In this document: positions 3,766-47,798 of the stretch, one piece after another
How the letters are laid out: the number at the start of each line of letters is the position of its first letter
Position numbering within the stretch: position 1 is the stretch's first letter
Assembly: GCA_037444485.1 (NCBI GenBank)
Contig: JBBIMI010000001.1
Span: 15,526 to 79,525 of the forward strand
Source of the DNA: Candidatus Micrarchaeota archaeon
GTDB lineage: Archaea; Micrarchaeota; Micrarchaeia; Norongarragalinales; Norongarragalinaceae
Direction: 5' to 3'
DNA length: 64,000 bases
Made by a program: the position numbers and the translations under genes
The notes under the pieces: generated by a model
Seen by the model: the letters and a program-made list of their open reading frames with translations, nothing else
Databases searched by the model: none
What the model was told of the DNA's origin: nothing

Positions 3766-3870
3766 GCTTGAAAGCGAGTAAGCCGTACGCGGAGCCGGTG
3801 CATGCAGGCTAGTGCTGGCAAGCAAGCGCATGAAACCGTCAAACAAGAAACGAAGAGGGAACGTAAAAAA

Positions 3871-8464: not shown

Positions 8465-8490
8465 CGGTTAGTGTGTATAATGTTATTCGG

Positions 8491-8607
8491 TTGGCGGCCA
8501 TAGGAGGGTGGAAACGCCCAGTCCCATTTCGAACCTGGAAGCTAAGCACCCTTACGACGTGGCGAGTACTGGAGTAATTCCGGGAAAGCCTGTTGCTGCC
8601 ACCACTC
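8491..8607 (+). rRNA. rrn5: 5S ribosomal RNA.
   Basis: ttggcggccatagg...gtcccatttcgaacc.ggaagctaagc...ggcgagtactg..gtaattccgggaa.gc..gctgccacc matches the archaeal 5S consensus, and the two ends pair. Exact ends are +/- 3 nt. Confidence 0.8.
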
Positions 8608-24586: not shown

Positions 24587-25057
24587 TCAACCCACTACCC
24601 TCGGTTTTCTGGTGATTACTGTTTCATTCAACGCGTTCGGGTGCATCGCAAAATAATCAGCTGCTTCCTTGTTTAACGCGTCGTTCGGATTCGGTTTTTC
24701 GAGTAATTGCTTTAACGCTTTTACTAGGCTCACTAGCGTCGTGCCTTCACTCCACTCGTTTAAAAGCTGAATGCATACTTTTCCGTCTTCGCTGCGAATG
24801 TTCGGGTGAAAGATTGGAGTCAACCAAGTGACTTCGATTCCGCCAGCGTAAGGGTATTCGCGCTTCAAATCGATTTGAATAGAGTGCGACTCGCGTTTTT
24901 GTAGCGAGTCCCCGTTCTTAAACAAGCTGACGCCGCGCAAGCTTATTACGTAACTCGTCTTCGACTCGTTAACCTCAAAATTTTCTTTGCTGGCAACCAT
25001 TTGTTGAAACTCGCTTTCAAGCCTGCGTCTCCAAATCGCTTCAGGAAGCATTGGCAT
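24587..25057 (-). CDS. Ubiquitin-conjugating enzyme (E2, UBC fold)-like protein.
   Basis: FHPNIRSEDGKVCIQLLNEWSEGTTLVSLVKALKQLLEKPNPNDALNKEAADYF fits the E2 HPN motif, catalytic Cys and PNP..P.N.EAA signature. Confidence 0.75.
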   Translation of the reverse strand: MPMLPEAIWRRRLESEFQQMVASKENFEVNESKTSYVISLRGVSLFKNGDSLQKRESHSIQIDLKREYPYAGGIEVTWLTPIFHPNIRSEDGKVCIQLLNEWSEGTTLVSLVKALKQLLEKPNPNDALNKEAADYFAMHPNALNETVITRKPRVVG

Positions 25058-25095
25058 TACAGACTACCTCGAAAAAACAGTTGAATGATTTGACT

Positions 25096-25359
25096 TCAAC
25101 CGCCAGTCGGATCAGGCATCAACAGCAAACGACTCCCTTCCTTTAAACCAGCGTCTGCCACCGTAATTTCAGGATTCAAAACCTTATCATCAACAGTAGA
25201 TAAAACAAAACGGTCTTTTAATTGAAGGTTTTCAGCGAGCACTTCCAAAACAGAGCTGATTGTGAAGCCCGGCTCTACCGCAACAACTATTTCCTTCCCG
25301 CTCGTGGTATGCGTTACTGTAATGTTGAATTCTTTCGAAGGCGAACTTTCCGATTCCAT
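25096..25359 (-). CDS. Ubiquitin-like beta-grasp modifier ending in a free Gly-Gly.
   Basis: 87 aa. FNITVTHTTSGKEIVVAVEPGFTISSVLEVLAENLQL...LKEGSRLLLMPDPTGG* aligns in pattern with ubiquitin and terminates in GG-stop. Confidence 0.6.
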   Translation of the reverse strand: MESESSPSKEFNITVTHTTSGKEIVVAVEPGFTISSVLEVLAENLQLKDRFVLSTVDDKVLNPEITVADAGLKEGSRLLLMPDPTGG

Positions 25360-25459
25360 GCAAAAACCACCTCAATTAAAGCACGTTAGTTAAAGCAAAA
25401 GATATTTGAACACAATATAATAATAAGTGTTGCGGTGAACAAAAGAGGTTTTTAAACCC

Positions 25460-25936
25460 GTGAATGAAGAAAAGAAAAAACCAAAGACAATAAGTGAGAA
25501 AGACGCGGTTCAAGAAGCTGGCGTTAAAGAAACCGTTGAAGAAGAAAGCAAGGAAACCGCTGAATCTAAAAACGAAAACACTAAAGAGGCGGAAAAACAA
25601 CTAGTGGAAACAAGTGAAACGAGTAAAACAAGCGAAAAAGAAGAGAAGAAGCCTAGAGTGAAAGTCGTTGTAGAACCAGTTTTCGGCGAACGCGGAACAA
25701 AACCCGTCATAACCGTCACTAGCGAGAAACCGCGTTTAGTGCGTGAAGTAGAAGAACAAGCTGCTCGAGACGTTCTGCCAACACAATCTCCGCCGGGCAC
25801 GCCGTTAGAAGCGCGGAAACCCTTGACGCGTGAAGAAGTAGTTGAGAAAGCGAAACAGGTTTGGGAAGAGAACAAGCGGAAAAAAAGTGAAGGTAAGTTC
25901 TTCAACCGCTTAAAACGCGCGTTGAAACTCGGTTAA
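25460..25936 (+). CDS. Highly charged (E/K-rich), probably disordered protein upstream of the JAMM gene.
   Basis: 158-aa ORF. Low-complexity KETAESKNENTKEAEKQ is followed by a short conserved-looking PVFGERGTKPVITV segment. Confidence 0.35.
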   Translation: MNEEKKKPKTISEKDAVQEAGVKETVEEESKETAESKNENTKEAEKQLVETSETSKTSEKEEKKPRVKVVVEPVFGERGTKPVITVTSEKPRLVREVEEQAARDVLPTQSPPGTPLEARKPLTREEVVEKAKQVWEENKRKKSEGKFFNRLKRALKLG

Positions 25937-25955
25937 AGTTGTTTAAAGCGGTGAA

Positions 25956-26417
25956 TTGATGTTCGAGGTTTACGTTCACGAGAAAGTCTTAAAGAAAGCT
26001 GAAAAACACTGCGCACGCGAAGCAGAGAGAGGACTAGAAGCGATGGGTTTGCTTTTGGGAAACGCGTTCACGCACAAGGGCCGTGAGTACGTTGTAGTCG
26101 AAGACTATTCCACTGGCGAGAATGAAGCAACAAGCGTTTCGGTGCGCTTTACGAAGAAAGCGTTTTCTAAACTCGCGAAAGACTTCGAGGAAGGTGGACG
26201 CATAATCGTTGGTTGGAGCCACGCACACCCGTCTTACGGTTGCTTCCTCTCAGCAACAGACTTGAAGACTCAAAACAATTACTTTAACGAAGATTTCCAC
26301 GTCGCGCTCGTCATAGACCCAACGCACAAAACGTCGAACGGTTTTGAAAAAAAGTTTTTCAAACTCTGCGCTGAAGGCTACCGCGAAGCTTCCTACGCGG
26401 TAATCAAAGAAAAGTGA
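25956..26417 (+). CDS. JAMM/MPN+ metalloprotease (Rpn11-like isopeptidase).
   Basis: EAMGLLLG ... VGWSHAHPSYGCFLSATD gives the E-x(n)-H-x-H-x7-S-x2-D JAMM motif. Confidence 0.8.
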   Translation: MMFEVYVHEKVLKKAEKHCAREAERGLEAMGLLLGNAFTHKGREYVVVEDYSTGENEATSVSVRFTKKAFSKLAKDFEEGGRIIVGWSHAHPSYGCFLSATDLKTQNNYFNEDFHVALVIDPTHKTSNGFEKKFFKLCAEGYREASYAVIKEK

Positions 26418-27427
26418 AAAAAATGCTTGGACAAAGCGAGACGCAGGAAAAAAACGCGAACGCACCCGCTGCTGCTGGCGCGTCAGCCGCAACTCCAGCG
26501 GCGAAGACGACAGTAAAGACAATGGTGGAGACGCGCAGAAAGAAAGCAGTCGTAAAGAAAACCGCGATTAAGATAACTAAGTTTGATAAAGCGCTCGCGC
26601 AACAAATAATTTTAGGCGAAACTAACCTAAAGAAAATCCAGGAAAAAATGCGTGTCGACGAAAAACAATTTTTTGAACGCGTGAAGAAACTAGGCGACGC
26701 TGGTTACATTGTTATTAATGAATCAAGGGAAGCCTGGTTTGGAATAAAAGGCTTTGAAGCCTTCGCCAACCAATTCAAGAAACTTGCGTCTACGCCGACG
26801 CCGAAATCCCGCGCGCGACTGGAAGAAACGCCCTCCGCGGCGCAAGCACCGCAAGCGCAGCAGACGCCAGCGCAGCAAGCGCAGCAGACGCAACAAACGC
26901 AGTCTCCCTTCACACAGCCCACGGTTCCGCCTGCGTTAGACCCTAGGCAAACTTTTCTTGCTGAAGCGACTGCAAAAGAAAAAGATGAGGTCAACGTCGA
27001 CTTGAGCGAATTGCTTAAAAAAGGTGCTCCTAAACCAAGCGACTCGATTTTCGTAAAACGCCAAAACGAAAAATCTTCTAGAGTGCTCTCTCGCGCGTTT
27101 GAAACAATTAAAACCAAGGATCCTGCAAAAGTCTCGACTGCAGGAGAATTAATTGAAGCGATTAAGAAAAGTAAGCCGAGCAGAGAGGCGTTGATGGTTG
27201 ACGGCGGCGAGGCTTGCGAATTGTGTAAAGCAAATTTTAAACTCGCTGTTGCAGGAGACGGCAACCCAAAGTACGGCCACTGCTTCTGCGGAGCAGCCTA
27301 CCATAAAGACTGTTACGAGTCCCTCGCAGGCAACAGCGGAAAATGCGTGCGCTGCGGCAAGAAACTCAAACTCGAGTTAAGCAAACAAAGCGAAGAAGCG
27401 GTTAAAGAAATAAAGGAATTATTCTGA
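26414..27427 (+). CDS. C4HC3 RING-like (treble-clef) zinc-finger protein and candidate E3. It has an N-terminal alpha-helical domain and a Q/A/P-rich linker.
   Basis: C-terminal C-x2-C-x17-H-C-x-C-x4-H-x2-C-x10-C-x2-C (CELCKANF...GHCFCGAAYHKDCYESLAGNSGKCVRCGK). The start overlaps the JAMM stop (GTG 26414 or ATG 26423). Confidence 0.55.
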   Translation: MKKMLGQSETQEKNANAPAAAGASAATPAAKTTVKTMVETRRKKAVVKKTAIKITKFDKALAQQIILGETNLKKIQEKMRVDEKQFFERVKKLGDAGYIVINESREAWFGIKGFEAFANQFKKLASTPTPKSRARLEETPSAAQAPQAQQTPAQQAQQTQQTQSPFTQPTVPPALDPRQTFLAEATAKEKDEVNVDLSELLKKGAPKPSDSIFVKRQNEKSSRVLSRAFETIKTKDPAKVSTAGELIEAIKKSKPSREALMVDGGEACELCKANFKLAVAGDGNPKYGHCFCGAAYHKDCYESLAGNSGKCVRCGKKLKLELSKQSEEAVKEIKELF

Positions 27428-27465
27428 GAAAGCGTGAAGTACCCTAAAATACTGGGTTCCGACTT

Positions 27466-28227
27466 TCAATGCACTGGGCAACTAACGCGTTTCGGAACTT
27501 CAAACAACCGTGCAGTCGACTTCAAACCGTCCAGAAAGAGGAACTTGCCTGCAAGCGTTTTCTCGCCGAAAGAATCACTGTGCACGAGCTTCAAAAACTC
27601 GTTCACTTGAATTCCTGCAACAACGCTCGTCGTCGTCGGAAGCGCCGGATTCTTTGGGTTAATCCAATCAACTAACTCTCCCACACAATTGTACTTTTGC
27701 CACAAAAGCTTGTAATCGCTTTTACTCAACCCGCACTCGAGACACGAAGAAGGAGCGCGCACTACTTGCACTTTCCCGAAAAACCCGGTTGTTCCCCCGT
27801 CAATCAAAGGAATCTTGCTGTAACACTGGGCGTTCAAATGCAGTCTCGCACCCAAGTTGTCGAGACAACCGAAAGCGTAATCGAAATTTTCGTAAAAATC
27901 TTCAGGAAGTTCTTCAATCTTCTCAGTGAAAACGCGTACCTCGGCAGTCGGATTGATTCTTGCAGCTTCGCGTTTTACCACATCAACCTTCGGCAAGCCC
28001 ACGTCTCCCTCGCTAAAGAAAACACAGCGATTCAAGTTCGCTTTCACAATCGAATCGAAGTCTACAAGCGAAATGTTTTTTACGCCGAGTTGAAGCAAGA
28101 GCTTGACGACTTCATTTCCAAGCGCGCCAGCGCCGACTACAAGCACGCGCGCCTCCGCGACTTCAGTCTGCCTCCAACCCTTCACGCGCTTTTGCCTATC
28201 GTGAACGTCCTCATCAATCGCAACCAT
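27466..28227 (-). CDS. E1-like ubiquitin/Ubl-activating enzyme (ThiF/MoeB/UBA family) with a zinc site.
   Basis: VLVVGAGALGNEV Rossmann motif, GCLDNLGARLHLNAQC catalytic segment, CLECG...CPVH zinc ligands. Confidence 0.75.
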   Translation of the reverse strand: MVAIDEDVHDRQKRVKGWRQTEVAEARVLVVGAGALGNEVVKLLLQLGVKNISLVDFDSIVKANLNRCVFFSEGDVGLPKVDVVKREAARINPTAEVRVFTEKIEELPEDFYENFDYAFGCLDNLGARLHLNAQCYSKIPLIDGGTTGFFGKVQVVRAPSSCLECGLSKSDYKLLWQKYNCVGELVDWINPKNPALPTTTSVVAGIQVNEFLKLVHSDSFGEKTLAGKFLFLDGLKSTARLFEVPKRVSCPVH

Positions 28228-29718: not shown

Positions 29719-30966
29719 TTATCGATTGAAAATAATCTCCATGCTTTCCGGCTCCAAGCGCACGCCTTCATTACTCACACCCAAATTAAGGACTTCAATC
29801 TTTTTTTCCTTATAACCGCGCCAGAATTCGCGCACTTTTTCCGCAGACTCTTCGCTTAAGCATATCGCGGCTATCGAGTCGCCGCCGCCAGCGCCTGGAA
29901 GCTTGGCGACGAAAGCGCCGTGCTTAAGCGATTCGTTGACGAGTTTGCTTAGTGTCGGGGGCTCTATTGGGGCGCCGCTTTTTTCGCCTAGTTCGCGCGT
30001 TAATTCGCGCCCGCGTTCGAATTCTTGTTTGAAGCGCGTGAATAACTCGAGTTCGCTTGATGGTTTTTGTGGTTTCTGTGTGGTTTTCTTTGATTCGGCG
30101 AGCGTGAGGGTTTTGGCGTAAAGCGAAGGGTTTTGTTTCGCGAGCGCATTGATTTTTTCGAGTAAAGCTATTGCTTTCGCGTTTGCTTCGTTGAGTTCCC
30201 GCATTAAATTCGCGTACTCTTGCGGGTTTGTTGTTTTCCACGCGTTTATTTTTTTAACCATTTCGCTGGTTGAAGCGCTTTCGCCGGCAATGTTTCCGAC
30301 TACTGCGGTGAAGGAGGGCGGCATTGCGAGTGGTTTTGAAGAGTAATCCCAAGCGCTCTCTAGAGCTTCCAGAAAGTCTTTCTTCTTTAAGATGCTTGGG
30401 CTGTAACGCGAGTAAACGTGTCCGCCGTAAGTTGCGGCGGCAACGTCGAAACCGCTGCCTATCTTGCCTTGCGCCACGCAGTGAACCAACTGCGCTGTTT
30501 TGTGCAGTAATTCTTTTTCTTTTAACGCGTCGATTCCGTGAAGCGCGAGTACCGCGGCTGTCGAGGCTACTGTGACTGCTGCTGAAGCGCCGAGTCCGGC
30601 TTTAGTAGCGCCTAGTCCGAATGCTGGGTCGCTGAACGTGGTTAATTCTATTCCGTTGAAAGAAATGTTTTTGCGGATAAAGTAATTGAAGCAAGTTTCG
30701 ACGGCGCCCCGCATGAATTTTGTGGCTGAATCTTGTTCTGGGGTTAACGGGTTTTTGAAAACCAGTTTGTTTAACTCGAATGCTGCTTCAGCGAACGCGT
30801 TGAATTGCGGGGCGTTTAACACGACCTTGTTTTCGTCAAGCTTTCGCGCGCGCACGAAAACGCGTTTGTTTACTCCGGTAACGAAGGAAACATTTGGTTT
30901 TTCGAGAACCGAATACCCGCCAATCCAAAGTATTTTCCCGGGCGCTGACGCAATGCAAGAATTCAT
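29719..30966 (-). CDS. Phosphomevalonate kinase (GHMP kinase, ERG8-like).
   Basis: SAPGKILWIGGYSVLE N-terminal signature of PMK. GHMP motif GLGASAAVTVA. Confidence 0.7.
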   Translation of the reverse strand: MNSCIASAPGKILWIGGYSVLEKPNVSFVTGVNKRVFVRARKLDENKVVLNAPQFNAFAEAAFELNKLVFKNPLTPEQDSATKFMRGAVETCFNYFIRKNISFNGIELTTFSDPAFGLGATKAGLGASAAVTVASTAAVLALHGIDALKEKELLHKTAQLVHCVAQGKIGSGFDVAAATYGGHVYSRYSPSILKKKDFLEALESAWDYSSKPLAMPPSFTAVVGNIAGESASTSEMVKKINAWKTTNPQEYANLMRELNEANAKAIALLEKINALAKQNPSLYAKTLTLAESKKTTQKPQKPSSELELFTRFKQEFERGRELTRELGEKSGAPIEPPTLSKLVNESLKHGAFVAKLPGAGGGDSIAAICLSEESAEKVREFWRGYKEKKIEVLNLGVSNEGVRLEPESMEIIFNR

Positions 30967-30970
30967 TTCA

Positions 30971-31738
30971 CTACCTTCTCAAGACTTCCTTCAACACTTG
31001 TTTAGCGTTTTCAAGAATAAAATCAGCTTGTTTTGCGAGTTCTTCACGCTTGCTGTTTCCAGTTAAAACGCCTATTGTTTTCACTCCAGCTCGTTTTCCA
31101 GCAATTATTCCTGCAAGCGAATCCTCTACGAGAACAACTTCTTGAGGGAAAACGCCTAGTTTTTTTAACGCGTAGTTTATCATTGACGGGCTTGGTTTTT
31201 CCTTTAAACGTTTTTCCTTCAAACCAGCGTCTTCAGTAACCAGCAAATCAACTTTAAAACCGAATTTCTTAATTAACGATGAAGCAAACAGTTTGTTGGC
31301 GTTCGTGATTATCACGGTTTTAAAGCCTTTATTACGCAGTTGTTTCAACAAACTCGCGGAACCCTGAATTTTTTTCGCGAGGTTCAAGAGTCTTCCAGGA
31401 TTCCTGCGAATTCTAGAGTACTCGCGGACAGCGACTTCACTTTCAACAAGTTCAGCTTTAGAAAGATTGTTTACCGCCTTGCGTAGTTTTACGCGTGTCG
31501 CTTGAAGACGCGCTCCGCTTCCCGCTTTCTTAATGCCTAACTTGTTTAAAGCGATGAGCGCTTTAAAAAAATCTTGTTTTTTATGAAACTCTGGAAGAGA
31601 GCGAATCGCGTAAACGTCGCGCACTCGAAAACACGGTTTTACGCCGGCGTGCGCTAAGGCTTTCTCTACAACCTTTTCTTGAAACCTACCGTAATCCACT
31701 AGCACTCCTTCGAGGTCGAAAAAAACGGCGCGAATCAA
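30971..31738 (-). CDS. HAD-superfamily hydrolase.
   Basis: VFFDLEGVLVD motif I and ITNANK/GVKTIG..TGN later HAD motifs. Sits between the MDD and PMK genes on the same strand. Confidence 0.65.
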   Translation of the reverse strand: MIRAVFFDLEGVLVDYGRFQEKVVEKALAHAGVKPCFRVRDVYAIRSLPEFHKKQDFFKALIALNKLGIKKAGSGARLQATRVKLRKAVNNLSKAELVESEVAVREYSRIRRNPGRLLNLAKKIQGSASLLKQLRNKGFKTVIITNANKLFASSLIKKFGFKVDLLVTEDAGLKEKRLKEKPSPSMINYALKKLGVFPQEVVLVEDSLAGIIAGKRAGVKTIGVLTGNSKREELAKQADFILENAKQVLKEVLRR

Positions 31739-31754
31739 ACGCAGACACCAACCT

Positions 31755-32828
31755 TTATTTCACGATTATTCTGCCGCTTGCCTCATCATACCAGTGTTCG
31801 CGAATGTTGCCGCTTGAGTCAAGCAAGTGTTCGTTAACGTACTTCGGCCCAAAACCAACTTTGCAAACCAGTATTTTCTGAACGCCTTCAACTTCAGCCA
31901 AAACTTTTTTTACTTCATCAACGTGTTTTTCAACAGTAAAAACGTGAGCGTTGGGGCCAGCGTCGAAAGTGTAACCAGCCTTTATTTCGCCCGCAGCGTT
32001 GTTAAAGTCTATTATTGAAGCCATTATTTGTTTTGAAACGTCGTTCAAATACGTTATTGGCGGCCACGTGTCGAGCATTACCGCGTGCATGTTGCTTGAT
32101 TCACGCATAGTCGCTTCGAGAAGCGTCGGCAAGTCTTTGCGTAGAATCGCGTTGCGCACGGTTTCAAGAGTCTTCGGCAAGTCTCGAAGCCGCTTTTGAT
32201 AAAGACTGCTTGTCGCCACCGTCTGCTTCATTCCAGCGCGAGAAGAAATTTTTTTCTTTCCTTGCTCTACGATTGCAATCACGTTACGCAACTCCAGCCA
32301 ATGCGACGGCGGCGCGATTTGAATTGCTAACGAATCGCTGCCGTCGCTCTTGACTCCGCGTTTCCACTCGACGAAACCGCCGAGAACACTGCGGCAAGCG
32401 CTGCCTGAACCCAAGCGCGCGAGAATAGATAATTCGCTTGAAGACAAGTTGAGGCCGGCTGCTTTGGAAGCAGCGCAAGCAAGCGCAGCCAAGCCGGCAG
32501 CGCTTGACGCGAAGCCAGCCGCGGTCGGAAAACAATTGAGTGAAACTATTCTTGCTTTTGCGTTTATTCCGGCTTTTTCTCGAATGACGTTCAATTGTTG
32601 CATGCGTTCAGCTGTTTCCTTGTCGTTCAAGTCAAGCTTTCTTCCATTCAACCAAACTTCGTCTTCCGCGAATTTTTCTGAAAACATGACGGTCGTACGC
32701 GTTTTCAGCGTTTCATCCATAGTCACAGAAATGCTTCCTTCCTGCGGCAGAATCAGTTTTTCGTCGCGTTTCCCCCAGTATTTTACTAACGCGATGTTTG
32801 CAGTTGCTTCAACAGTTGAAATACTCAT
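31755..32828 (-). CDS. mvd: Diphosphomevalonate decarboxylase.
   Basis: ANIALVKYWGKRDE signature. GHMP GFASSAAGLAALA. Confidence 0.8.
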   Translation of the reverse strand: MSISTVEATANIALVKYWGKRDEKLILPQEGSISVTMDETLKTRTTVMFSEKFAEDEVWLNGRKLDLNDKETAERMQQLNVIREKAGINAKARIVSLNCFPTAAGFASSAAGLAALACAASKAAGLNLSSSELSILARLGSGSACRSVLGGFVEWKRGVKSDGSDSLAIQIAPPSHWLELRNVIAIVEQGKKKISSRAGMKQTVATSSLYQKRLRDLPKTLETVRNAILRKDLPTLLEATMRESSNMHAVMLDTWPPITYLNDVSKQIMASIIDFNNAAGEIKAGYTFDAGPNAHVFTVEKHVDEVKKVLAEVEGVQKILVCKVGFGPKYVNEHLLDSSGNIREHWYDEASGRIIVK

Positions 32829-33726
32829 TTAATCCCCCCTCGCTGCGTTTCAAGAGTTCTTTAACGTAATTGATTGAGTCAAACAGTATTCTGCGCTCGC
32901 ACGCATTTAATCGTTTATCTTCAGCGAAAAGCTTTAAATCGCGTTCGAAAAAACGCTTGAATTTTTTAACTGCTTGTTTTTCTGGAATGCGTTTCTTTCC
33001 ACAATCGTAAAAAAAGTTTAACACTGCTAATGCGCCGACACGTTTCAACCAACTGCGGACAAGCGGGTTTTCAACCCCGGCCTCCCGCTGCAAAACACGC
33101 ACGTACTCGGAAACAAAGCTTAAAGAATCGCGCGCTTCAGGAAAAACTTGCAACAACAACCGGCCAGCAGAACTTTTCAAAAACGTTTTCGACTTACGCA
33201 AGCGTTTTTTGTAGTAAGAGATTATTGTTGCAGCGTTGAGAGGCGCGCCGCTCTCGCCGAGATACAAGTTTCTTCGAAAAACAATGTGTTCCGCAAACTG
33301 GTCTAGTTTGTCAGCTGCCTTCAATGCTCGCCCTACAAGGGAAGAAACACGTTTCACTCTCCGAAAACCATTCGGGGAAAGCCCAAACGAATGCGAAGCG
33401 ATAGCGTCACAAACCAATTTCACTTCTTCAACCGAAAAACCGTATTTCGGCAGTATGCTTGCAGCCGCTTGCGCGGAAGCGACTTCATGCTCGTCCGCTA
33501 AACCCATCTTTTTTAAAAGGTTTTCAGGAATCCGCAGCCAATCGTGAAACAAGCCGGCTATAAATCCAAGTTCCTGCTCACGCAGCGAACCACCGCCTTT
33601 TTTTACGAGCTCGCGAGTCAAAAGCGCTACGGGCAGGATGTGCTCGCGCCAAGAGTGAACCTTCGAATGCAATCCCTTCCGCGTTCTCTCCTCGTAATGC
33701 TTTTCAGCAAAACTAGTCAATTTCAT
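32809..33726 (-). CDS. HD-domain-like hypothetical protein.
   Basis: HSWREHILPVALLTREL ... GLFHDWLRIPE ... D. 305-aa ORF. The 3' end overlaps the mvd start by about 20 nt. Confidence 0.4.
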   Translation of the reverse strand: MKLTSFAEKHYEERTRKGLHSKVHSWREHILPVALLTRELVKKGGGSLREQELGFIAGLFHDWLRIPENLLKKMGLADEHEVASAQAAASILPKYGFSVEEVKLVCDAIASHSFGLSPNGFRRVKRVSSLVGRALKAADKLDQFAEHIVFRRNLYLGESGAPLNAATIISYYKKRLRKSKTFLKSSAGRLLLQVFPEARDSLSFVSEYVRVLQREAGVENPLVRSWLKRVGALAVLNFFYDCGKKRIPEKQAVKKFKRFFERDLKLFAEDKRLNACERRILFDSINYVKELLKRSEGGLNEYFNC

Positions 33727-33789
33727 TCTTGGAATACCGTTTTAGATTACTTTTAGATTACTGCGTTTACTGCGAATATCGCCGTATTT

Positions 33790-34935
33790 CTATAGGCGGT
33801 TCACTATTTTCTCGAACTCTTCGCGGGCTTTACGCTTTGATTCAGCTTCAATTTCAGAAACCCACTTGCCCGCGTATTCGCCTGAAGGCTTGGCGTAAAC
33901 GTCAGGGTGCGCGTAATGCAAGACGAGTTGAGCTGCTTGATTCGCTTTTTCCTTGCTTATTGAAGAAATCATTTTTTTAGAATCTTTAGGAATGTTTTCC
34001 TTAATTTTTTCAGAAAACTCTTCCAATCCAGGGTAGCCGTGATTCAACCCAAATTCTAGGAGTTCGTCCTCTGATTCGAAGTTGAAGTGTTTTATCAAGC
34101 TGTAGTAAACGTCTTCCTCCATTTTTCGCATTCTGTTAACTTCACTCACCAATTCTGGCGGGTAGTCTGAAGCAGTTTTCTTTGCTCTAATCCTCAGCAG
34201 CGACTCCAGCAGGAAAGCGAGTTTTTTAGTATCAGCGACAGTGAATTTTCTTTCCTCTCGCATACCCAAAAGTTTTTCGACGAAAGGCTTCATTTCTAGA
34301 TCGGTATCGTGTCTTTTTCCAGCTACGAATTCCGCTCGTCTTTTCACTACTGTAGCGCCGAGTCCTTCAGGCCCCTTGTCACCCCAAGTCAAGCCAAGCA
34401 ATACTATTTTCTCTAACAAGGGCTTGTTCTCGTCCTCTAATTTTTCTCTTATTTTTTCTAACGACAACTCGTTGTCTTGAATGGCTTTCGTAATTGCATT
34501 GAATTCAGAATCGGTTAAGAACGTCAACCCAGTTTCATCCTCCTTGATTTTTCCTTCACGAATTTGCTTCAACCACGCGCTCCTGCGCTTTTCAAGCAGT
34601 CTTACAGTCTTGAAACCGTCAGACTGACTTAATGCAGACAATCCGGTTTTTCCAGTTTCTCCCGCTCGCCTTATTAAATCGTGAACAATCGCGGCAATTC
34701 CAGCCAAGTTCGCTAAAGCCTTTACGGAATCAGAATTCAAGCGTTGCTTGCGCGCGTTTTCTTCAGCGACCCGCATTGCTTCTAAAGCAGCTGGATAAAC
34801 GTGGTCCCGCGCGTGAGCGGGCTCTCGCCCGCCGCTCTTTTCAAGAGTATCGTAGGCTTTGTTGAAGTACGAAAAAACTTTTTTTAAAGCCTTGGTTGTC
34901 CGTTTTCTCGCTTCACTCGGGTTTTCAAACACCAT
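33790..34935 (-). CDS. Hypothetical protein with a possible HD-like metal site.
   Basis: 381-aa ORF. AHARDHVYPAALEAM...AIVHDLIRR. Confidence 0.4.
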   Translation of the reverse strand: MVFENPSEARKRTTKALKKVFSYFNKAYDTLEKSGGREPAHARDHVYPAALEAMRVAEENARKQRLNSDSVKALANLAGIAAIVHDLIRRAGETGKTGLSALSQSDGFKTVRLLEKRRSAWLKQIREGKIKEDETGLTFLTDSEFNAITKAIQDNELSLEKIREKLEDENKPLLEKIVLLGLTWGDKGPEGLGATVVKRRAEFVAGKRHDTDLEMKPFVEKLLGMREERKFTVADTKKLAFLLESLLRIRAKKTASDYPPELVSEVNRMRKMEEDVYYSLIKHFNFESEDELLEFGLNHGYPGLEEFSEKIKENIPKDSKKMISSISKEKANQAAQLVLHYAHPDVYAKPSGEYAGKWVSEIEAESKRKAREEFEKIVNRL

Positions 34936-35149
34936 GAATTAAATTTGAGTAAACTGATTTTATAAACGTTTACGCAATAAACGTTTGCGTATTGGCTCGC
35001 ATACAGATTATTGTTTTAAACAATTTTTTCAAGAAACAGGAAACAATTTTTTTCAACAATTTTTTTTCAATAAATATTTTTTCAACAAACAAAGAACAAT
35101 TATTTTTAAAACAAGAATAATTATTTTCAACAAGTAGTGGGAAAAACGA

Positions 35150-36232
35150 ATGGCGAACAATTTCGTAAAAATAATTGCGAGCGCGCCGAACAAAATTCAT
35201 GTTGCTGGCGAGCACAGCGTCGTTTACGGTGGAATAGCTTTAATCGCTCCAGTTGAAGTGGATGAAAAACGCAACGTTGTGGAATTAATCGCTGAACCCG
35301 GCCAGCCTCAGCTAGAGTTTATAGGAAAAGGTTACGGAAAAACCGGGAGGGCAGTACTGCATGCTGACGGGACGATGAACGGGGACAACGAATGGAAGCC
35401 GATGCTTGAAGTAGCGCAACACGTTTTAGAAGACTGCGAAAAAAACTTGAAAGACTTGAATACTAGTATAACCGCTGAACGGTTTTTCAGTGGTGCGCCG
35501 AAAGGAACAGGCAATTCAGCTTCAATTCCAGCAGCATTCGCTTCCGCGTTATACGCGTTTTTGGGAAAAAAACCAAGCAAGCAAGAACTTTACGATGCGG
35601 CTTTCATTGCGGACAACGCGTGGCATGGCGGAAAGTCAAGCGGTGGAGACGTGCAAGCAGTAATTTCGAACCATCCACAAAAATTCTGGAGAGAATTCAC
35701 TCGAAAAGGCGTAAAACCACGTTACCAAGACTTTAGTGGAACGCTTCCGAAAAACACTGTTTTAGTGTTAATAGATTCTTTCAGGGGTGTTGGAGAGAAA
35801 TCCACTACGGCGCTCCAAATCGAGAAATTCGCTGCAGCTAACGGAATAACTAGAAAACCTTTCGAATTAACTGAACAGGAAAGAAAAAAAATATGTAAGC
35901 CTTACGATGAAGTCATCGAAAAAATAGAAAGCGAAATGCGTTTTGACGGAAACCCTGAAAAACTCGGGGCATACTTCAACGAAAACCACGAGTTACTGAA
36001 AAAATCAAATGTTTCAAGTCCAGACATTGAAGAAGCTATTTCAGTAAGCAAGCGAAACGGCGCTCTAGGAGCGAAACTAATCGGCGCCGGAGGCGTTGGG
36101 GGGGCAGTCATAGCCCTCTGCATGCGAGAAAAAACGCGTTTAATAACGAATGCGCTTGCGGAAAAAAAATTTAATAGTTGGACGGTCAAATTCGCTGAAA
36201 AAGGAGCTTGCGTGGATTCGATGCAAAAATGA
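35150..36232 (+). CDS. mvk: Mevalonate kinase.
   Basis: SAPNKIHVAGEHSVVYGG N-terminal GHMP signature. GTGNSASIPAAFASALY. C-terminal GAKLIGAGGVGGAVIAL. Confidence 0.8.
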   Translation: MANNFVKIIASAPNKIHVAGEHSVVYGGIALIAPVEVDEKRNVVELIAEPGQPQLEFIGKGYGKTGRAVLHADGTMNGDNEWKPMLEVAQHVLEDCEKNLKDLNTSITAERFFSGAPKGTGNSASIPAAFASALYAFLGKKPSKQELYDAAFIADNAWHGGKSSGGDVQAVISNHPQKFWREFTRKGVKPRYQDFSGTLPKNTVLVLIDSFRGVGEKSTTALQIEKFAAANGITRKPFELTEQERKKICKPYDEVIEKIESEMRFDGNPEKLGAYFNENHELLKKSNVSSPDIEEAISVSKRNGALGAKLIGAGGVGGAVIALCMREKTRLITNALAEKKFNSWTVKFAEKGACVDSMQK

Positions 36233-36280: not shown

Positions 36281-36989
36281 ATGAAAATGAAAACTTTTGT
36301 TATAGGCGTTGACGAAGCGGGCAGATTGCAATAACTCAAGTTATTGCAAGCCAAAAGGACCCGTCATCGGCCCACTAGTAGTCTGCGCTTTCGCCGCGCC
36401 AGAGTCTTCGCTTTCTTCACTCAAGAGCGCGGGTGTCAAGGATTCTAAGTTGCTGACGCCTGAAAAGCGCGAGGCGCTCGCGCGCGAGTTGCGCGCGTTT
36501 CCGCACGCCCTCGCCGTCGTCACCGCGCGGGAAATTACTGAGGAAATGGCGCGCAAGGTTTCATTGAATGAAGTGGAAGCGCGCTTCATGGCTAGCGTGA
36601 TTCAAGCAGTCGTAGAGAAAGTTGGTTTCGAGAACGTGGCGCGAATCATGGTTGATTCTCCTGACCCGACTACAGTAAAGTTTAAAGCGCGGTTGCGCAA
36701 GTATTACGACGCTGATTCGAAAGTTCATTGCGAACACAAGGCGGACTTGCGTTATACTGAAGTAGGCGCTGCTTCAATTCTAGCGAAAGTCTTGCGCGAC
36801 GCTGAAGTCGCTAAAATCAAGGAGTTGTTCGGTGAAGACTTTGGAACAGGGTATAGTCACGATGCGGCGACGATCGCATTCCTGAAAAAACACTTGCGTG
36901 ACCCGCGGCTCACGGAATTCGTGCGGTGGAAGTGGAGCACCGCAAAAAAATTGAGGGTCACGCAGTTAGAGTTAAACAAATTCCTATAA
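36281..36989 (+). CDS. rnhB: Ribonuclease HII, with its reading frame interrupted by a 31-nt insertion (36326..36356).
   Basis: Exon-like part 1 encodes MKMKTFVIGVDEAGR (36281..36325). Part 2 from 36357 encodes GPVIGPLVV...DSKLL... Together they give the canonical GxDEAGRGPVIGPLV RNase HII N-terminus. Unspliced, the frame hits TAA at 36332. Confidence 0.7.
36326..36356 (+). other. 31-nt intervening sequence inside rnhB, containing a perfect 10-bp inverted repeat (ttgcaataac-tcaa-gttattgcaa) plus gccaaaa.
   Basis: Read directly. Its precise excision (31 = 3n+1) restores the frame and the conserved motif. Confidence 0.7.
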
Positions 36990-43261: not shown

Positions 43262-44563
43262 TTAAAAGTTAACCCTCAATTCGGCAAGCAATTCACGCGC
43301 TCGGTCCACGCTTATTTTTTTCTCTTCAACCATCTTCCGCGCTATAACGTCAATCAACTCGCCTTTAGCGCCCGCCAAAACCGCGATGTTCTTCGCGTGC
43401 AGTTTCATGTGCCCCGCTTGAATTCCTTCGGTAGCAAGCGCGCGAAGCGCAGCGAAATTTTGAGCCAAGCCCACCGCTGCCATAACCTCGCCTAATTCGC
43501 GTGCAGTCTTCACGCCGAGAAGCTTTACGCAAACGCGCGCCACCGGATGCGTTTTCGTCGCGCCGCCGACTAAGCCGAGCGCGACAGGCAGAGTTATTTC
43601 TCCGATTAAGTCCCCTTTCTCGTTCTTGTAGTACTTCGTCAAAGGCGAGTATTTGCCTGAAAGCGCTGCGAAAGCGTGCGCGCCTGCCTCGAGCGCGCGC
43701 CAATCGTTTCCAGTGGCAATCGCTACAGCGTCAACGCCATTCATTATTCCCTTGTTGTGCGTGCAAGCGCGGTATTCGTCGCTTGCCGCGAACGCGTAAG
43801 CGTCGAGAATGCGTTCGATTGTTTCCTCTCCGCCGCAAACTCCTTCGACAGCGAGCTCGCTTTTAGGAAAAACAGCTTTAGCGTGAGCAGTGCGGTTGAC
43901 TGCGAGGTTTGAAATGATGCGCAAGCGCGCGCTCGCTCTAGTAAGCTCTTCCAATTTAGGGGCAAGCGCTTCACTCATCGTGTTCACCGTATTCGCGCCC
44001 ATCGCGTCCCGCACGTCGACAAGCAAGTGCACTGCAAGCATTTTGCCGCGCGGCGAATCGACGACGCGCGATTCAATCCCTCGCGCGCCTCCACCGTGTT
44101 CTACAAGAGTTTTGTCTAGAGTGTTGACGAAAGCAATCAGTTTTTGTTCCTGTTCTTTAATAATCTTGATTGCGTTAGCCCAATCGTTTTCATTAAAACG
44201 CGGATTAACGAGCTGAATCTGTCCAATCATCACGGGCTCAGTCGAAGTAGTAGTGAAACCGCTTGCAGCCCGCGCGATTTTCGCGGCTTTGCTTGCAGCA
44301 GCGACCACGCTTGGTTCTTCGATTGCGAAAGGAATAAAGTAATCTCGGCCGTTGATTTTAAAGTTTGTAGCGATTCCGATCGGCAGTTGCGTTGTTCCAA
44401 CAACGTTTTCAATCATTCTATTCGCTGTTTCCGCGCCCAGCCCACCGTAATGGCTTAAAATCGTCGCTTCTTCTTGAGTTAACCCAGCAAAGTTTCGCAC
44501 GAATTCGAGGCGTTCGGCAGCGGAAAGCTTGTAAAACTCTTTCACTTCAGAAGATTTTTCCAT
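43262..44563 (-). CDS. hmgA: 3-hydroxy-3-methylglutaryl-CoA reductase.
   Basis: ENVVGTTQLPIGIATNFKINGRDYFIPFAIEEPSVVAAASKAAK, DAMGANTVNTM, GTVGG-type segments. Confidence 0.85.
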   Translation of the reverse strand: MEKSSEVKEFYKLSAAERLEFVRNFAGLTQEEATILSHYGGLGAETANRMIENVVGTTQLPIGIATNFKINGRDYFIPFAIEEPSVVAAASKAAKIARAASGFTTTSTEPVMIGQIQLVNPRFNENDWANAIKIIKEQEQKLIAFVNTLDKTLVEHGGGARGIESRVVDSPRGKMLAVHLLVDVRDAMGANTVNTMSEALAPKLEELTRASARLRIISNLAVNRTAHAKAVFPKSELAVEGVCGGEETIERILDAYAFAASDEYRACTHNKGIMNGVDAVAIATGNDWRALEAGAHAFAALSGKYSPLTKYYKNEKGDLIGEITLPVALGLVGGATKTHPVARVCVKLLGVKTARELGEVMAAVGLAQNFAALRALATEGIQAGHMKLHAKNIAVLAGAKGELIDVIARKMVEEKKISVDRARELLAELRVNF

Positions 44564-44749
44564 GACCCCACCAAAAAAAATTATTTCTCCAACGAATTAA
44601 AAACCCCTCTAAAACCCTTCTCTGCTTCGGCAATCAACGATTTTCCTAGAGTTTAGAACGATTTAAAAAAAACAACTCGCAATAAAAAACTGGTAAAAAC
44701 TAGTTGACTGATTAACGAAACGCTTAACAATCGCTCGAGGTAGTCGCGA

Positions 44750-45796
44750 GTGACTGCTGGAATAATTGGTTACGGGACCGCAATACCGCGCTTGCGCATA
44801 AAGCCAAGCGAAATAGCGCGAGTGTGGGGTAAAGACGGCGAACGCGTAAGCGCGAGCTTGAACGTCAAAGAAAAAGCAGTCGCAGCCTTCGACGAAGATT
44901 CTTGCACTCTCGCTGTTGAAGCAGCGAGGGAAGCGCTTGAAACAGCGCGAATCAAGCCAACGCAAATTGGAGCCGTCTTCGTTGGAAGTGAAAGCAAACC
45001 GTACGCAGTCAAGCCAACTGCAACCATAGTCGCTGAAGCAATAGAAGCGACACCCAACCTCACTGCAGCCGACTTCGAATTCGCTTGCAAAGCAGGCACT
45101 ACTGGAATTCAAGCACTCATGGGAATGACTGAAAGCGGAATCATTGATTACGGGATTGCAATAGGTTCAGACACTGCTCAAGGCAGGCCTGCAGACGCTC
45201 TCGAGTACACCGCAGGCAGCGGTGCAGGCGCTTTCATAATCGGAAAACAAGACCCTATTGCGACAATCGACGCTACCTTCTCGTTCACTACAGACACTCC
45301 GGATTTTTGGCGCAGGCAACACGCGGAATTCCCGCGCCACGCAGGCCGTTTTACTGGCAAGCCAGCCTTCTTCAAACACGTGGTAAGCGCGGCTCAAGGA
45401 CTCATGAAAAAAACAGGTTTGACTGCAGAAGATTTCAATTACGTGGTCTTCCATCAGCCCAACGGCAAATTCCCGTTGGAAGCAGGCAAGATTCTCGGCT
45501 TCGAAAAACAAAAACTCGAACAAGGACTAATAACGCCTTACATTGGCAACACTTACAGCGGAGCTTCAATGATTGGGCTCGCAAGCGTCTTAGACGCCGC
45601 CAAGCCCGGCGACAAGATTCTAGTAGTCTCTTACGGCAGCGGCGCAGGCAGCGATGCGTTTGCTATCACCGTCACTGAAGCAATAAAGCAATCCGGCCGC
45701 AGGCCGAAGAAAAGTGTTTTCGAAAAAATCCGCGACAAGGAATACGTTGACTACGCACTCTACGCAAAACACAGAAAGAAAATCAAGAGCTTGTGA
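44750..45796 (+). CDS. Hydroxymethylglutaryl-CoA synthase (archaeal type).
   Basis: MTAGIIGYGTAIPRLRIK N-terminus, catalytic FEFACKAGT, HQPNGKF, YIGNTYSGAS. Confidence 0.8.
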   Translation: MTAGIIGYGTAIPRLRIKPSEIARVWGKDGERVSASLNVKEKAVAAFDEDSCTLAVEAAREALETARIKPTQIGAVFVGSESKPYAVKPTATIVAEAIEATPNLTAADFEFACKAGTTGIQALMGMTESGIIDYGIAIGSDTAQGRPADALEYTAGSGAGAFIIGKQDPIATIDATFSFTTDTPDFWRRQHAEFPRHAGRFTGKPAFFKHVVSAAQGLMKKTGLTAEDFNYVVFHQPNGKFPLEAGKILGFEKQKLEQGLITPYIGNTYSGASMIGLASVLDAAKPGDKILVVSYGSGAGSDAFAITVTEAIKQSGRRPKKSVFEKIRDKEYVDYALYAKHRKKIKSL

Positions 45797-45863
45797 GGAG
45801 ATTAAATTGGGGTTGAGTGAAAGAAAAAAAATTTTCTTTATTTATTTAGGCTATTTACTGTTT

Positions 45864-46163
45864 ATGCTGAACTCCAGCGTGGCTGTAGCAAACCAGGAAA
45901 ACCCGTTTAGAGAAATAACAATGATTTCAATGCTCGTTGCGCCGATTGCTTTCATAATCTGGTTGATTTACAAGATTGTGAATCCAGCTGACTCTCGAGC
46001 GCTTACAGTAATCAAAGGCAGCTTAATCTGGAGTTTAACAATCTTTTTAGGTTCCTCGCTTTACAACATTACTGTTTGGAAACCACGATTCCCAATAACA
46101 CCAGACTACGTTTACCGAGTTGATTCAATGGGCTTTAATCACATTTCCAGCAAGCGCTTTTAG
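45864..46163 (+). CDS. Small hypothetical membrane protein.
   Basis: ORF with 2-3 TM helices between the HMGCS and thiolase genes. Start ambiguous: TTG 45807 or ATG 45864. Confidence 0.3.
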   Translation: MLNSSVAVANQENPFREITMISMLVAPIAFIIWLIYKIVNPADSRALTVIKGSLIWSLTIFLGSSLYNITVWKPRFPITPDYVYRVDSMGFNHISSKRF

Positions 46164-46222
46164 CCGCGCTTGAAATCAAAATACTTAAAGCCAGTAAACA
46201 AGTTAAAAACAAAAAAAAGAAA

Positions 46223-47395
46223 GTGAAACTCATGCGCAAGGTTTCAGTAATAGGGGCTGCTTACACAAAGTTCGGCGAACACTGGGAAAAAAGCTTTAGA
46301 GAACTCGCCGTCGAGGCGGGCGTAAAAGCACTGCAAGACGCGCACATGGAAGGCAAAGACATTCAAGCGCTTTACGGCGCCAGCATGGCCAGCGGCACGT
46401 TTATCGGACAAGAACACGTTGGCGCGCTCTTAGCAGACCAAATGGGTTTAAACCCGATTCCAGCAATACGTTGTGAAGCTGCCTGCGCCAGCGGCGGCGT
46501 TGCGTTCAGGCAAGCTTACCTCGCGGTTGCAAGCGGTGCTTACGACATCGTCGCAGTCGGAGGCGTCGAGAAAATGACTGACGTCAGCGTCGAAGAAGCC
46601 GCAACTGCGCTTGGAGGCGCGGGCGATCAAGAATGGGAATTGTTTTACGGCGCTACTTTTCCAGCGATTTACGCGTTAATGGCGCAAAAATACTTGCACG
46701 ATTTTAATGCGAAAGAAGAAGAATTCGCTGCAGTAGCAGTCAAAAACCACTACAACGGCGCGAGAAACCCGCTAGCACAATACCAGAAAGAAATCACTAT
46801 CGAAGACGTCATGAACTCGGGCTACATCGCCACACCACTCAAACTACTCGACTGTTCACCAATCACTGACGGCGCTGCCGCAGTCATCCTTTGCGCTTCA
46901 GAACACGCAAAGAAATACACCGACCAACCAATCGAAATAATCGCGAGCGCGCAAGCCAGCGACACGCTCGCGCTTGCAAGCAGGCACTGCCTCACAGAAC
47001 TCCATGCTACTAAAGTAGCCGCGAGAGAAGCATTCAAGCAAGCCCGCCTCACGCCAAAAGACATTGACGCAGCCGAAGTACACGATTGCTTCACGTCCGC
47101 GGAAGTGATGGCGATCGAAGACTTAGGATTCTTCGAGAAAGGCAAAGGCGCGAAAGCAACTAGCGACGGCGCGACTGCATTAAACGCAGAAATCTCAGTC
47201 AACACCAGCGGCGGCTTGAAAAGCTGCGGCCACCCAGTTGCCGCAACCGGCATCAAGCAAGTATGCGAAATCGTGGAACAACTCCGCGGCGGCGCGAAAG
47301 AAAGACAAGTAAGCGGCGCGGAAATAGGCTTGACTCACAACGTTGGGGGCAGTGGCGCGACTGCGGTTGTCCACATATTCAAGAGAGGGGATTAA
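46223..47395 (+). CDS. Acetyl-CoA C-acetyltransferase (thiolase), archaeal HMGCS partner.
   Basis: Thiolase fold: active-site Cys region IRCEAACASGGVAFRQAY. C-terminal GHPVAATGIKQVCEI and NVGGSGAT. Confidence 0.85.
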   Translation: MKLMRKVSVIGAAYTKFGEHWEKSFRELAVEAGVKALQDAHMEGKDIQALYGASMASGTFIGQEHVGALLADQMGLNPIPAIRCEAACASGGVAFRQAYLAVASGAYDIVAVGGVEKMTDVSVEEAATALGGAGDQEWELFYGATFPAIYALMAQKYLHDFNAKEEEFAAVAVKNHYNGARNPLAQYQKEITIEDVMNSGYIATPLKLLDCSPITDGAAAVILCASEHAKKYTDQPIEIIASAQASDTLALASRHCLTELHATKVAAREAFKQARLTPKDIDAAEVHDCFTSAEVMAIEDLGFFEKGKGAKATSDGATALNAEISVNTSGGLKSCGHPVAATGIKQVCEIVEQLRGGAKERQVSGAEIGLTHNVGGSGATAVVHIFKRGD

Positions 47396-47414
47396 AATTA
47401 GGCATGCTTTACCG

Positions 47415-47798
47415 TTGATTTGGCGCAGGATTCCAGAACGCTACAACCTACTCGGCTCAACATGCCAAAACTGCGGCGTTTCTTACTATCCTGAACGCAA
47501 GATCTGTCCCAAATGCAGACGCCACGGAAAACTCGTTAAACAAAAAATGCCTCGTGAAGGCAAGATCGTCAGTTACACTCAAGTGCATGCTGCTCCAAAA
47601 GGCTTCGAGCACGAAACGCCTTACTGGCTGGCAATCGTAGAACTCGACAACGGCGCCAAACTAATGGCGCAAATCGTGGACTCGCCGAAAGAAAAAATCG
47701 TTGAAGGCGCGCGCGTGCAAGCCTGCTTCCGCAAAATATTTGAAGATAACGAAGAAGGCGCGATCGCTTACGGATACAAGTTTAAAGTCGTTTACTAA
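47415..47798 (+). CDS. DUF35 protein (Zn-ribbon plus OB-fold scaffold of the thiolase/HMGCS complex).
   Basis: CQNCGVSYYPERKICPKC zinc ribbon followed by an OB-fold-like segment. Conserved gene order after thiolase. Probable TTG start at 47415. Confidence 0.65.
   Translation: MIWRRIPERYNLLGSTCQNCGVSYYPERKICPKCRRHGKLVKQKMPREGKIVSYTQVHAAPKGFEHETPYWLAIVELDNGAKLMAQIVDSPKEKIVEGARVQACFRKIFEDNEEGAIAYGYKFKVVY

Follow-up and report, generated by a model that had tools for sequence, protein, structure and literature searches.

The subject of this analysis is the gene for RNase HII (rnhB) in a 64-kb stretch of DNA from a Candidatus Micrarchaeota archaeon, the whole of which we call the window, and a 31-nt insert that separates the first 15 codons of that gene from the rest of its reading frame. 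The gene sits between a mevalonate kinase gene and the genes for ribosomal proteins S3Ae and S15, an order that is common to relatives, and its best homologues bear the names Candidatus Micrarchaeota, Micrarchaeia or Norongarragalinales. Positions 36281..36325 translate as MKMKTFVIGVDEAGR, the next 31 nt (36326..36356) read TTGCAATAAC-TCAA-GTTATTGCAA-GCCAAAA, and the frame that begins at 36357 reads GPVIGPLVV... and stays open until a stop at 36989. The insert brings an in-frame TAA at 36332..36334 and a frame shift of +1, a layout and translation that agree with a first-pass annotation of this DNA made from its letters alone. That annotation had also held that removing the 31 nt restores the frame and the conserved motif, and removal does yield a 225-aa protein that matches Pfam RNase_HII (PF01351) over positions 1-198/199 (E 8.4e-45), a match that describes the spliced product as a full-length RNase HII with the N-terminal catalytic DEAGRG motif. 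It had called the insert perfectly palindromic, which is true of the 10-bp arms, but only 24 of the 31 nt (the arms and a 4-nt loop) belong to the palindrome, and the terminal seven, GCCAAAA, lie outside it. As an A stands before both cuts, the junction could equally be placed one base further left with the same product. The length of 31 nt given earlier holds, but comparative and structural evidence favors 36325..36355 over 36326..36356, which splits the Arg codon as AG|A and gives the following layout:

36281..36324, + strand: rnhB exon 1, ATG through ...GAC GAA GCG GGC AG, encoding MKMKTFVIGVDEAG plus two bases of the Arg codon
36325..36355, + strand: predicted intron, 31 nt, A TTGCAATAAC TCAA GTTATTGCAA GCCA AA
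36356..36989, + strand: rnhB exon 2, A GGA CCC GTC ... TAA, the third Arg base and then GPVIGPLVV... to the stop
36309..36356, + strand: spurious N-terminus of the database gene call (protein P0001), TTG start, MTKRADCNNSSYCKPK

By tblastn, residues 15-225 of the spliced protein lie at 36354-36986. Without splicing, the locus offers only an 18-residue peptide or a TTG-start protein minus the catalytic Asp-Glu, and the database call P0001 reads exon 1 out of frame, runs through the intron and has no Asp-Glu of the DEAG motif. The insert palindrome occurs once in the window, where none is expected by chance. An intact second rnhB had been named beforehand as evidence that would speak against splicing; tblastn over the 64-kb window found none.

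The first-pass annotation had further suggested a comparison of rnhB among related genomes, for which we took DNA of relatives from species-representative genomes, a metagenome collection and individual assemblies. Among Micrarchaeota-type rnhB genes, we found 16 distinct loci, the window included, in which an insert separates DEAG(R) from GPV at one and the same codon; some 127 further rnhB junctions from archaea, those of some relatives included, have no interruption. The 16 loci come from NCBI, ENA, JGI and Logan assemblies made with different assemblers. Their inserts range from 27 to 45 nt and their hairpin sequences are largely unrelated:

window, L081 and L102: 31 nt each
L002: 43 nt
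L166: 42 nt
L003: 37 nt (L085 has the same sequence)
L169: 45 nt
L004: 33 nt (L084 has the same sequence)
L082: 37 nt
L083: 39 nt
L098: 29 nt
L126: 30 nt
L139: 27 nt
L086: 35 nt (L112 has the same sequence)
L172: 32 nt
L173: 33 nt

Insert lengths fall into all three frame classes (3n in seven loci, 3n+1 in six and 3n+2 in three), and in every one of the 16 loci an unspliced reading meets a stop 2-10 codons past the Gly codon, so that no frameshift or bypass rule rescues all of them and only removal of the insert does. All intron-bearing relatives retain an ATG-started exon 1 with the DEAG motif, and we saw no other stop or frameshift in the intron-bearing rnhB genes. Many database homologues are truncated or have unrelated residues right before GPVIGP. 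Automatic calls at intron-bearing rnhB genes (P0001, P0003, P0006, P0008, P0014, P0038 and P0070) show spurious starts or truncation, and public rnhB entries thus have junk N-termini such as MTKRADCNNSSYCKPK and no catalytic Asp-Glu; about 10% of the 120 best homologue clusters look affected.

The structural signal for archaeal splicing, a bulge-helix-bulge (BHB), is defined as two 3-nt bulges on opposite strands with a 4-bp helix between them (PMC5829648), and each bulge is cut between its bases 2 and 3, as reported for cbf5 (PMC2738675). A BHB fold is common to all 16 loci. In each, the central helix pairs the Gly codon and the Ala-codon base ahead of it (NGGC, UGGG, GGGA or CGGU) with GCCN, CCCA, UCCC or GCCG, and its intron strand consists of the four bases placed two bases ahead of the 3' junction. 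The 5' bulge is always AG|N and the 3' bulge NN|A (G in one locus). The intron hairpin abuts this core, starting right after the 5' bulge and ending right before the 3' strand of the central helix, while outside the core the first G of exon 2 and the C just ahead of the central helix form a pair, as do CGUC of exon 2 and GACG of exon 1. In all 16 loci, cuts at the canonical positions yield an in-frame DEAGRG(P/C)V(I/L)G. The core is a canonical 3-4-3 in 13 of the 16 copies, and the RNAalifold consensus of 14 junctions, run without an imposed structure, gave the same 3-4-3 core.

We then quantified the pairing in a structure alignment whose columns were fixed relative to the junction (16 exon bases, the first 7 and last 12 intron bases, and 14 exon bases). 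Across the 16 loci, 94.6% of the alignment cells were paired and eight pairs had both partners altered. In 500 column shuffles, the paired cells, the cells with both sides changed, the pair types and the covariation score never came up to the real values, and seven of the 500 had as many pairs altered on both sides as observed. When the 3' partners were slid by 1-3 columns, pairing fell to 26-43%, and the covariation score of 0.536 compares with 0.18 in shuffles and 0.02-0.18 in the slid controls. The outer six pairs of the hairpin were 93% paired and all six covary. The central helix was 95% paired and covaries at two of its four pairs, occurring as GGC:GCC, GGG:CCC, GGA:UCC and GGU:GCC with an outer pair of U-A, C-G, G-C or U.G; here the third position of the Gly codon covaries with an intron base as C-G, U.G, G-C and A-U. 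In the outer helix, GACG/CGUC was 95% paired and the C-G pair 100%. Between the window and L081 there is one compensatory hairpin change, from A-U to G-C.

At the window junction itself, where the earlier annotation had proposed that the region be folded, the core is a 3-nt bulge, a 4-bp helix and a 3-nt bulge, flanked by helices on both sides, and the canonical cuts restore the frame. Its elements, in the order in which they are met along the RNA, are as follows:

36311..36318, + strand: 5' strand of the outer exon-exon helix h, with GACG 36311-36314 pairing with CGTC 36362-36365 and C36318 with G36357 (RNAalifold)
36319..36322, + strand: GGGC, which serves as the 5' strand of the BHB central helix H and consists of the Gly codon and the Ala-codon base ahead of it, pairing with 36350-36353
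36323..36325, + strand: 5' bulge AG|A, unpaired in minimum free energy (MFE) folds, predicted cut 36324/36325
36326..36349, + strand: inner flanking helix h' (the intron hairpin), with perfect 10-bp arms (36326-36335 and 36340-36349) around a TCAA loop
36350..36353, + strand: 3' strand H' of the BHB central helix, GCCA
36354..36356, + strand: 3' bulge AA|A, predicted cut 36355/36356

The hairpin that had been taken as the structure of the insert is thus present, but its place in this fold is that of the inner flanking helix, and the helix of the BHB proper is the exon-intron pairing of GGGC with GCCA. Of the two flanking helices, the outer is the weaker.

Sequence divergence told of constraint at several levels. 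Comparison of the window with L081, both intron-bearing, gave a ratio of nonsynonymous to synonymous substitution rates (dN/dS) of 0.09 at dS ~1.1, and values were similar when the window rnhB was compared with that of the intron-less L171. Over the same window–L081 distance, the intron differs at 4 of 31 sites versus 58% of synonymous sites (binomial p = 3e-7). The complete GACG/CGUC helix, which rests on third positions of Pro and Val codons, is present in 13 of 16 intron-bearing and 36 of 127 intron-less rnhB genes (Fisher p = 6e-5), and in 4 of 22 close intron-less relatives (p = 2e-4 versus intron-bearing). On these comparisons, constraint acts on rnhB, on its intron and on the neighboring synonymous sites alike, which is what would be expected of a spliced, functional gene and is the opposite of what a pseudogene would show.

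We conclude that the 31 nt at 36325..36355 are very probably a BHB intron in the rnhB pre-mRNA. This reading builds on what could be observed directly: the sequence itself, a structural motif that is conserved and covaries, predicted cuts that agree with the frame, and purifying selection on rnhB. The first option of the earlier annotation, a BHB mRNA intron like that of cbf5, is borne out by the core, the in-frame cuts, the covariation, the recurrence in 16 lineages and the purifying selection. As we picture it, the rnhB pre-mRNA would fold locally, GGGC (36319-36322) forming the central helix with GCCA (36350-36353) between the bulges AGA (5') and AAA (3'), with the 10-bp intron hairpin stacked inside and the C-G pair and GACG/CGUC closing the structure outside. 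The tRNA-splicing endonuclease (EndA) would cut each bulge between bases 2 and 3, and ligation of ...GGC AG to A GGA CCC... by an RtcB-type enzyme would follow, recreating the Arg codon (AGA-GGA) and the motif DEAGRGPVIGP. Because the catalytic Asp-Glu is encoded in exon 1, active RNase HII would be translatable only after exon joining, and its supply would depend on the tRNA-splicing machinery.

Several points weigh against this interpretation. In the window, the central helix has an outer G.A mismatch and forms three of its four pairs (L081 has U-A there), an internal loop interrupts the exon-exon helix, and in a 63-nt context the BHB conformer is less stable than the MFE by 1.6 kcal/mol. 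Some MFE folds adopt an alternative register one base away, GGCA/UGCC with a 4-nt 3' bulge; we rejected that register, in which canonical cuts would leave two extra bases, as the adopted one is in frame in 16 of 16 loci. The structure alignment was placed by the homology-defined junction and is therefore not fully blind, with offsets that were not fitted per sequence. EndA cleavage, RtcB ligation and splicing in vivo are deduced from the motif and from the known splicing of archaeal tRNA, rRNA and cbf5. Finally, endA and rtcB were not found among the ~50 Pfam-scanned open reading frames (ORFs) of the window and are presumed to be encoded elsewhere; both are, to our knowledge, near-universal in Archaea. 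The splicing endonuclease characterized in Micrarchaeota is of the epsilon2 type and has a broad substrate range (PMC3488258, PMC5829648, PMC12397907), and such an enzyme would easily accommodate the slightly relaxed window copy.

Other explanations of the split gene were weighed against the same body of evidence. We give next to no credence to a sequencing or assembly artefact: chimeric reads can create palindromes and the window is part of a metagenome-assembled genome, but an assembly built independently from other reads (Logan SRR11582170, L170) carries the identical 31 nt. A homologous insert is moreover found in L081 and P0122, which come from two further samples, and 14 more lineages are interrupted at the same site. 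A pseudogene, in which a recent small palindromic insertion inactivated rnhB and the gene is now decaying, could draw on the stop and frameshift that the insert brings and on the existence of close insert-free relatives (P0121 at 89% and L171 at 85%). This is very unlikely, as the same site is interrupted in 16 lineages whose genes carry no other stop or frameshift, and dN/dS between two interrupted copies is 0.09. The insert is also conserved far beyond neutral expectation, with compensatory changes, no target-site duplications flank it, and a search of 0.85 Mb of related DNA for further copies of the intron sequences (13-mers, up to one mismatch) returned chance-level matches only, so that the intron is not a repeated element. 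The element is too old and too well conserved for the earlier alternative, an insertion that inactivated the gene very recently.

Translational recoding, by +1 frameshift or by bypassing of the gene-60 type, would need no RNA splicing. The window insert is of length 3n+1, the downstream frame is open through it (MTKRADCNNSSYCKPK-GPVIGP), and a stable hairpin follows right after the last exon-1 codon, as in phage T4 gene 60. Recoding is nonetheless extremely unlikely: with three length classes, and with in-frame stops in the 3n inserts, no single rule could serve, and a frameshift product would gain about 10 unconserved residues between the R and the G of the catalytic GRG. There is no matched pair of take-off and landing codons (a hop from AGA to AGG would end in the wrong frame), and bypassing would lead one to expect neither the exon-exon helix nor the conserved pairing of exon with intron bases. 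Removal by a route other than EndA and RtcB, whether by another structure-specific RNase and ligase at the RNA level or by excision from DNA, is improbable. What speaks for it is that endA and rtcB lie outside the window and that the window motif is slightly relaxed by its G.A mismatch; against it, the geometry is exactly of the EndA type, with a 4-bp helix, two 3-nt bulges and cuts after bulge base 2 (PMC5829648, PMC2738675), and no recombinase or repeat features point to DNA excision. Inserts of 27-45 nt are far too short for self-splicing group I or II introns, whose ribozyme cores take hundreds of nt, and Rfam had no match in the region. Apart from EndA, we know of no archaeal system with the cleavage ruler seen here. 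An intein was excluded by the size of the insert and its stops.

A homing-endonuclease intron was considered for L084, which is of the same species as L004. There, a 367-aa ORF at 1931..3034 lies directly upstream of rnhB, overlaps its start and has a faint LAGLIDADG_3 match. We rejected that candidate, as the ORF is a separate upstream gene in another frame and L084 has an ordinary 33-nt intron; any link between this ORF and the rnhB intron is speculative. Brute-force scans for BHB motifs with frame restoration on both strands of the window produced thousands of candidates and had no discriminating power. The Pfam scan found no other split gene among the ~50 window ORFs, and the short NFACT_N ORF at 62031-63185, considered as a split gene, has no continuation in another frame.

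The distribution of the intron, placed on a rough neighbor-joining tree of exon-2 proteins, is concentrated in the clade of the window, with further occurrences in scattered, more distant lineages and intron-less members interleaved. The closest relative, P0121, a cluster mate of the window protein, is 89% identical over the full length of the protein and has an uninterrupted rnhB (GVDDAGRGPVIGP), so that presence of the intron is polymorphic over a short evolutionary distance; L171 (85% identity), L167 and L165 are uninterrupted as well. These sequences fit an intron that is old in the clade, diverged in sequence but kept in structure, and that would have been lost precisely in several close relatives. 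The Arg codon is often CGC in the intron-less close relatives, and AG|A in intron-bearing genes with AG|G in one locus. The codons for D-E-A-G-R-G-P-V make up a quasi-palindrome of their own (GACGAGGC...GCCCCGUC) and form a hairpin, and unrelated hairpins at one site in scattered lineages could reflect repeated independent insertion into a structurally predisposed site. A possible route would be for the EndA/RtcB reaction to run backwards and its product to be reverse-transcribed. With more doubt than conviction, we entertain the idea that the rnhB intron is a case of ongoing BHB-intron turnover in DPANN mRNAs rather than a single frozen relic. Micrarchaeota could hold further unrecognized mRNA introns behind truncated gene calls, and, if they do, the making of a DNA-maintenance enzyme would be tied to the capacity for tRNA splicing.

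Beyond rnhB, the window bears on splicing in one more respect. ARAGORN and Rfam found no tRNA gene in the 64 kb, so that there were no tRNA introns of the same genome for comparison; tRNAs with unusual introns could escape detection in this lineage. The only RNA gene found in the window was the following:

8490-8604: stand-alone 5S rRNA

A set of mevalonate-pathway genes surrounds rnhB, at 29719..36232 and 43262..47798:

29719-30966: a further GHMP kinase
31755-32828: MVD-like decarboxylase
35150-36232: mevalonate kinase
43262-44563: HMG-CoA reductase
44750-45796: HMG-CoA synthase, putative, from N-terminal sequence only
46223-47395: thiolase, putative, from N-terminal sequence only
47343-47798: OB-fold/zinc-ribbon partner protein

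A eukaryote-like ubiquitin-system cluster occupies 24587..28227, and one of its two ORFs without a Pfam match, that at 26414-27427, could be an E3:

24587-25057, - strand: E2 ubiquitin-conjugating enzyme (UQ_con, E 1.3e-19)
25096-25359, - strand: small ubiquitin/SUMO-like protein
25460-25936 and 26414-27427: ORFs without a Pfam match
25956-26417, + strand: JAB/MPN protease
27466-28227, - strand: ThiF/E1-like enzyme

At the start of the window (1..6630) stand two very large ORFs of 1249 and 942 aa, rich in Ig-like, CARDB and fibronectin-type domains, which are probably surface proteins; the 1249-aa ORF reaches the window edge.

The nearest known counterpart of the rnhB intron is the BHB intron of cbf5, found in the Crenarchaeota (Desulfurococcales and Sulfolobales; Watanabe 2002; Yoshinari 2006; Yokobori 2009, PMC2738675). 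Both are short, BHB-bounded introns inside coding sequence with cuts between bulge bases 2 and 3, both lie inside a codon of a catalytic motif (the catalytic Asp in cbf5, the Arg of DEAGRG in rnhB), and both are patchily distributed, with gain and loss among close relatives. They differ in host gene and in phylum, the present one being Micrarchaeota (DPANN). Most cbf5 motifs are unconventional or relaxed and are tied to a heterotetrameric endonuclease, whereas the rnhB core is canonical in 13 of 16 copies and epsilon2 is the only type of endonuclease characterized in Micrarchaeota. Splicing of cbf5 has cDNA and in vitro support, whereas that of rnhB is a prediction from sequence.

A 2020 study named cbf5 as the only additional BHB intron reported besides its own intron in a 5' untranslated region (UTR) (PMC7714728), and papers from 2018 and 2025 cite the cbf5 work only (PMC5829648, PMC12397907). 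In the literature that we searched, no paper turned up that describes a BHB intron in rnhB, nor one in a protein-coding gene of Micrarchaeota or DPANN. It looks as if rnhB is the second archaeal protein-coding gene family with a BHB intron, after cbf5, and what is new lies in the host gene, the phylum, the canonical rather than relaxed core and, probably, the type of endonuclease. A second host gene in a different superphylum would mean that BHB mRNA introns are not an oddity of one gene or clade, and the rnhB case puts to the test the proposal that archaeal pre-mRNA introns need a heterotetrameric endonuclease of relaxed specificity. With 16 natural variants and intron-less relatives at 85-89% protein identity, it offers a system for the study of intron loss and gain and an instance of RNA structure constraining synonymous sites in flanking exons. 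It also exposes an annotation problem, in that gene callers truncate or misstart intron-bearing genes.

Other spliced RNAs share parts of this picture. The BHB introns of archaeal tRNAs and rRNAs, cut by EndA and joined by RtcB, have the same helix-3-4-3-helix signal, the enzymes presumed for rnhB are the same, and the rnhB intron falls within the size range of tRNA introns, 11-175 nt (PMC2738675). In rnhB, however, the substrate is an mRNA without a tRNA body for recognition, and the outer helix is coding sequence, which ties synonymous sites to RNA structure. The BHB intron in the 5' UTR of HVO_1309 of Haloferax volcanii (Schwarz et al. 2020, PMC7714728) likewise resides in an mRNA processed by the splicing endonuclease, but in an untranslated leader that leaves the frame untouched, whereas in rnhB the coding sequence itself is split. 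The eukaryotic HAC1 and XBP1, which are spliced unconventionally, resemble rnhB in having a short, spliceosome-independent mRNA intron that is removed by protein enzymes, recognized by structure, joined by tRNA ligase or RtcB and attended by a change of frame; they differ in that theirs is a regulated stress switch in which twin stem-loops are cut by Ire1.

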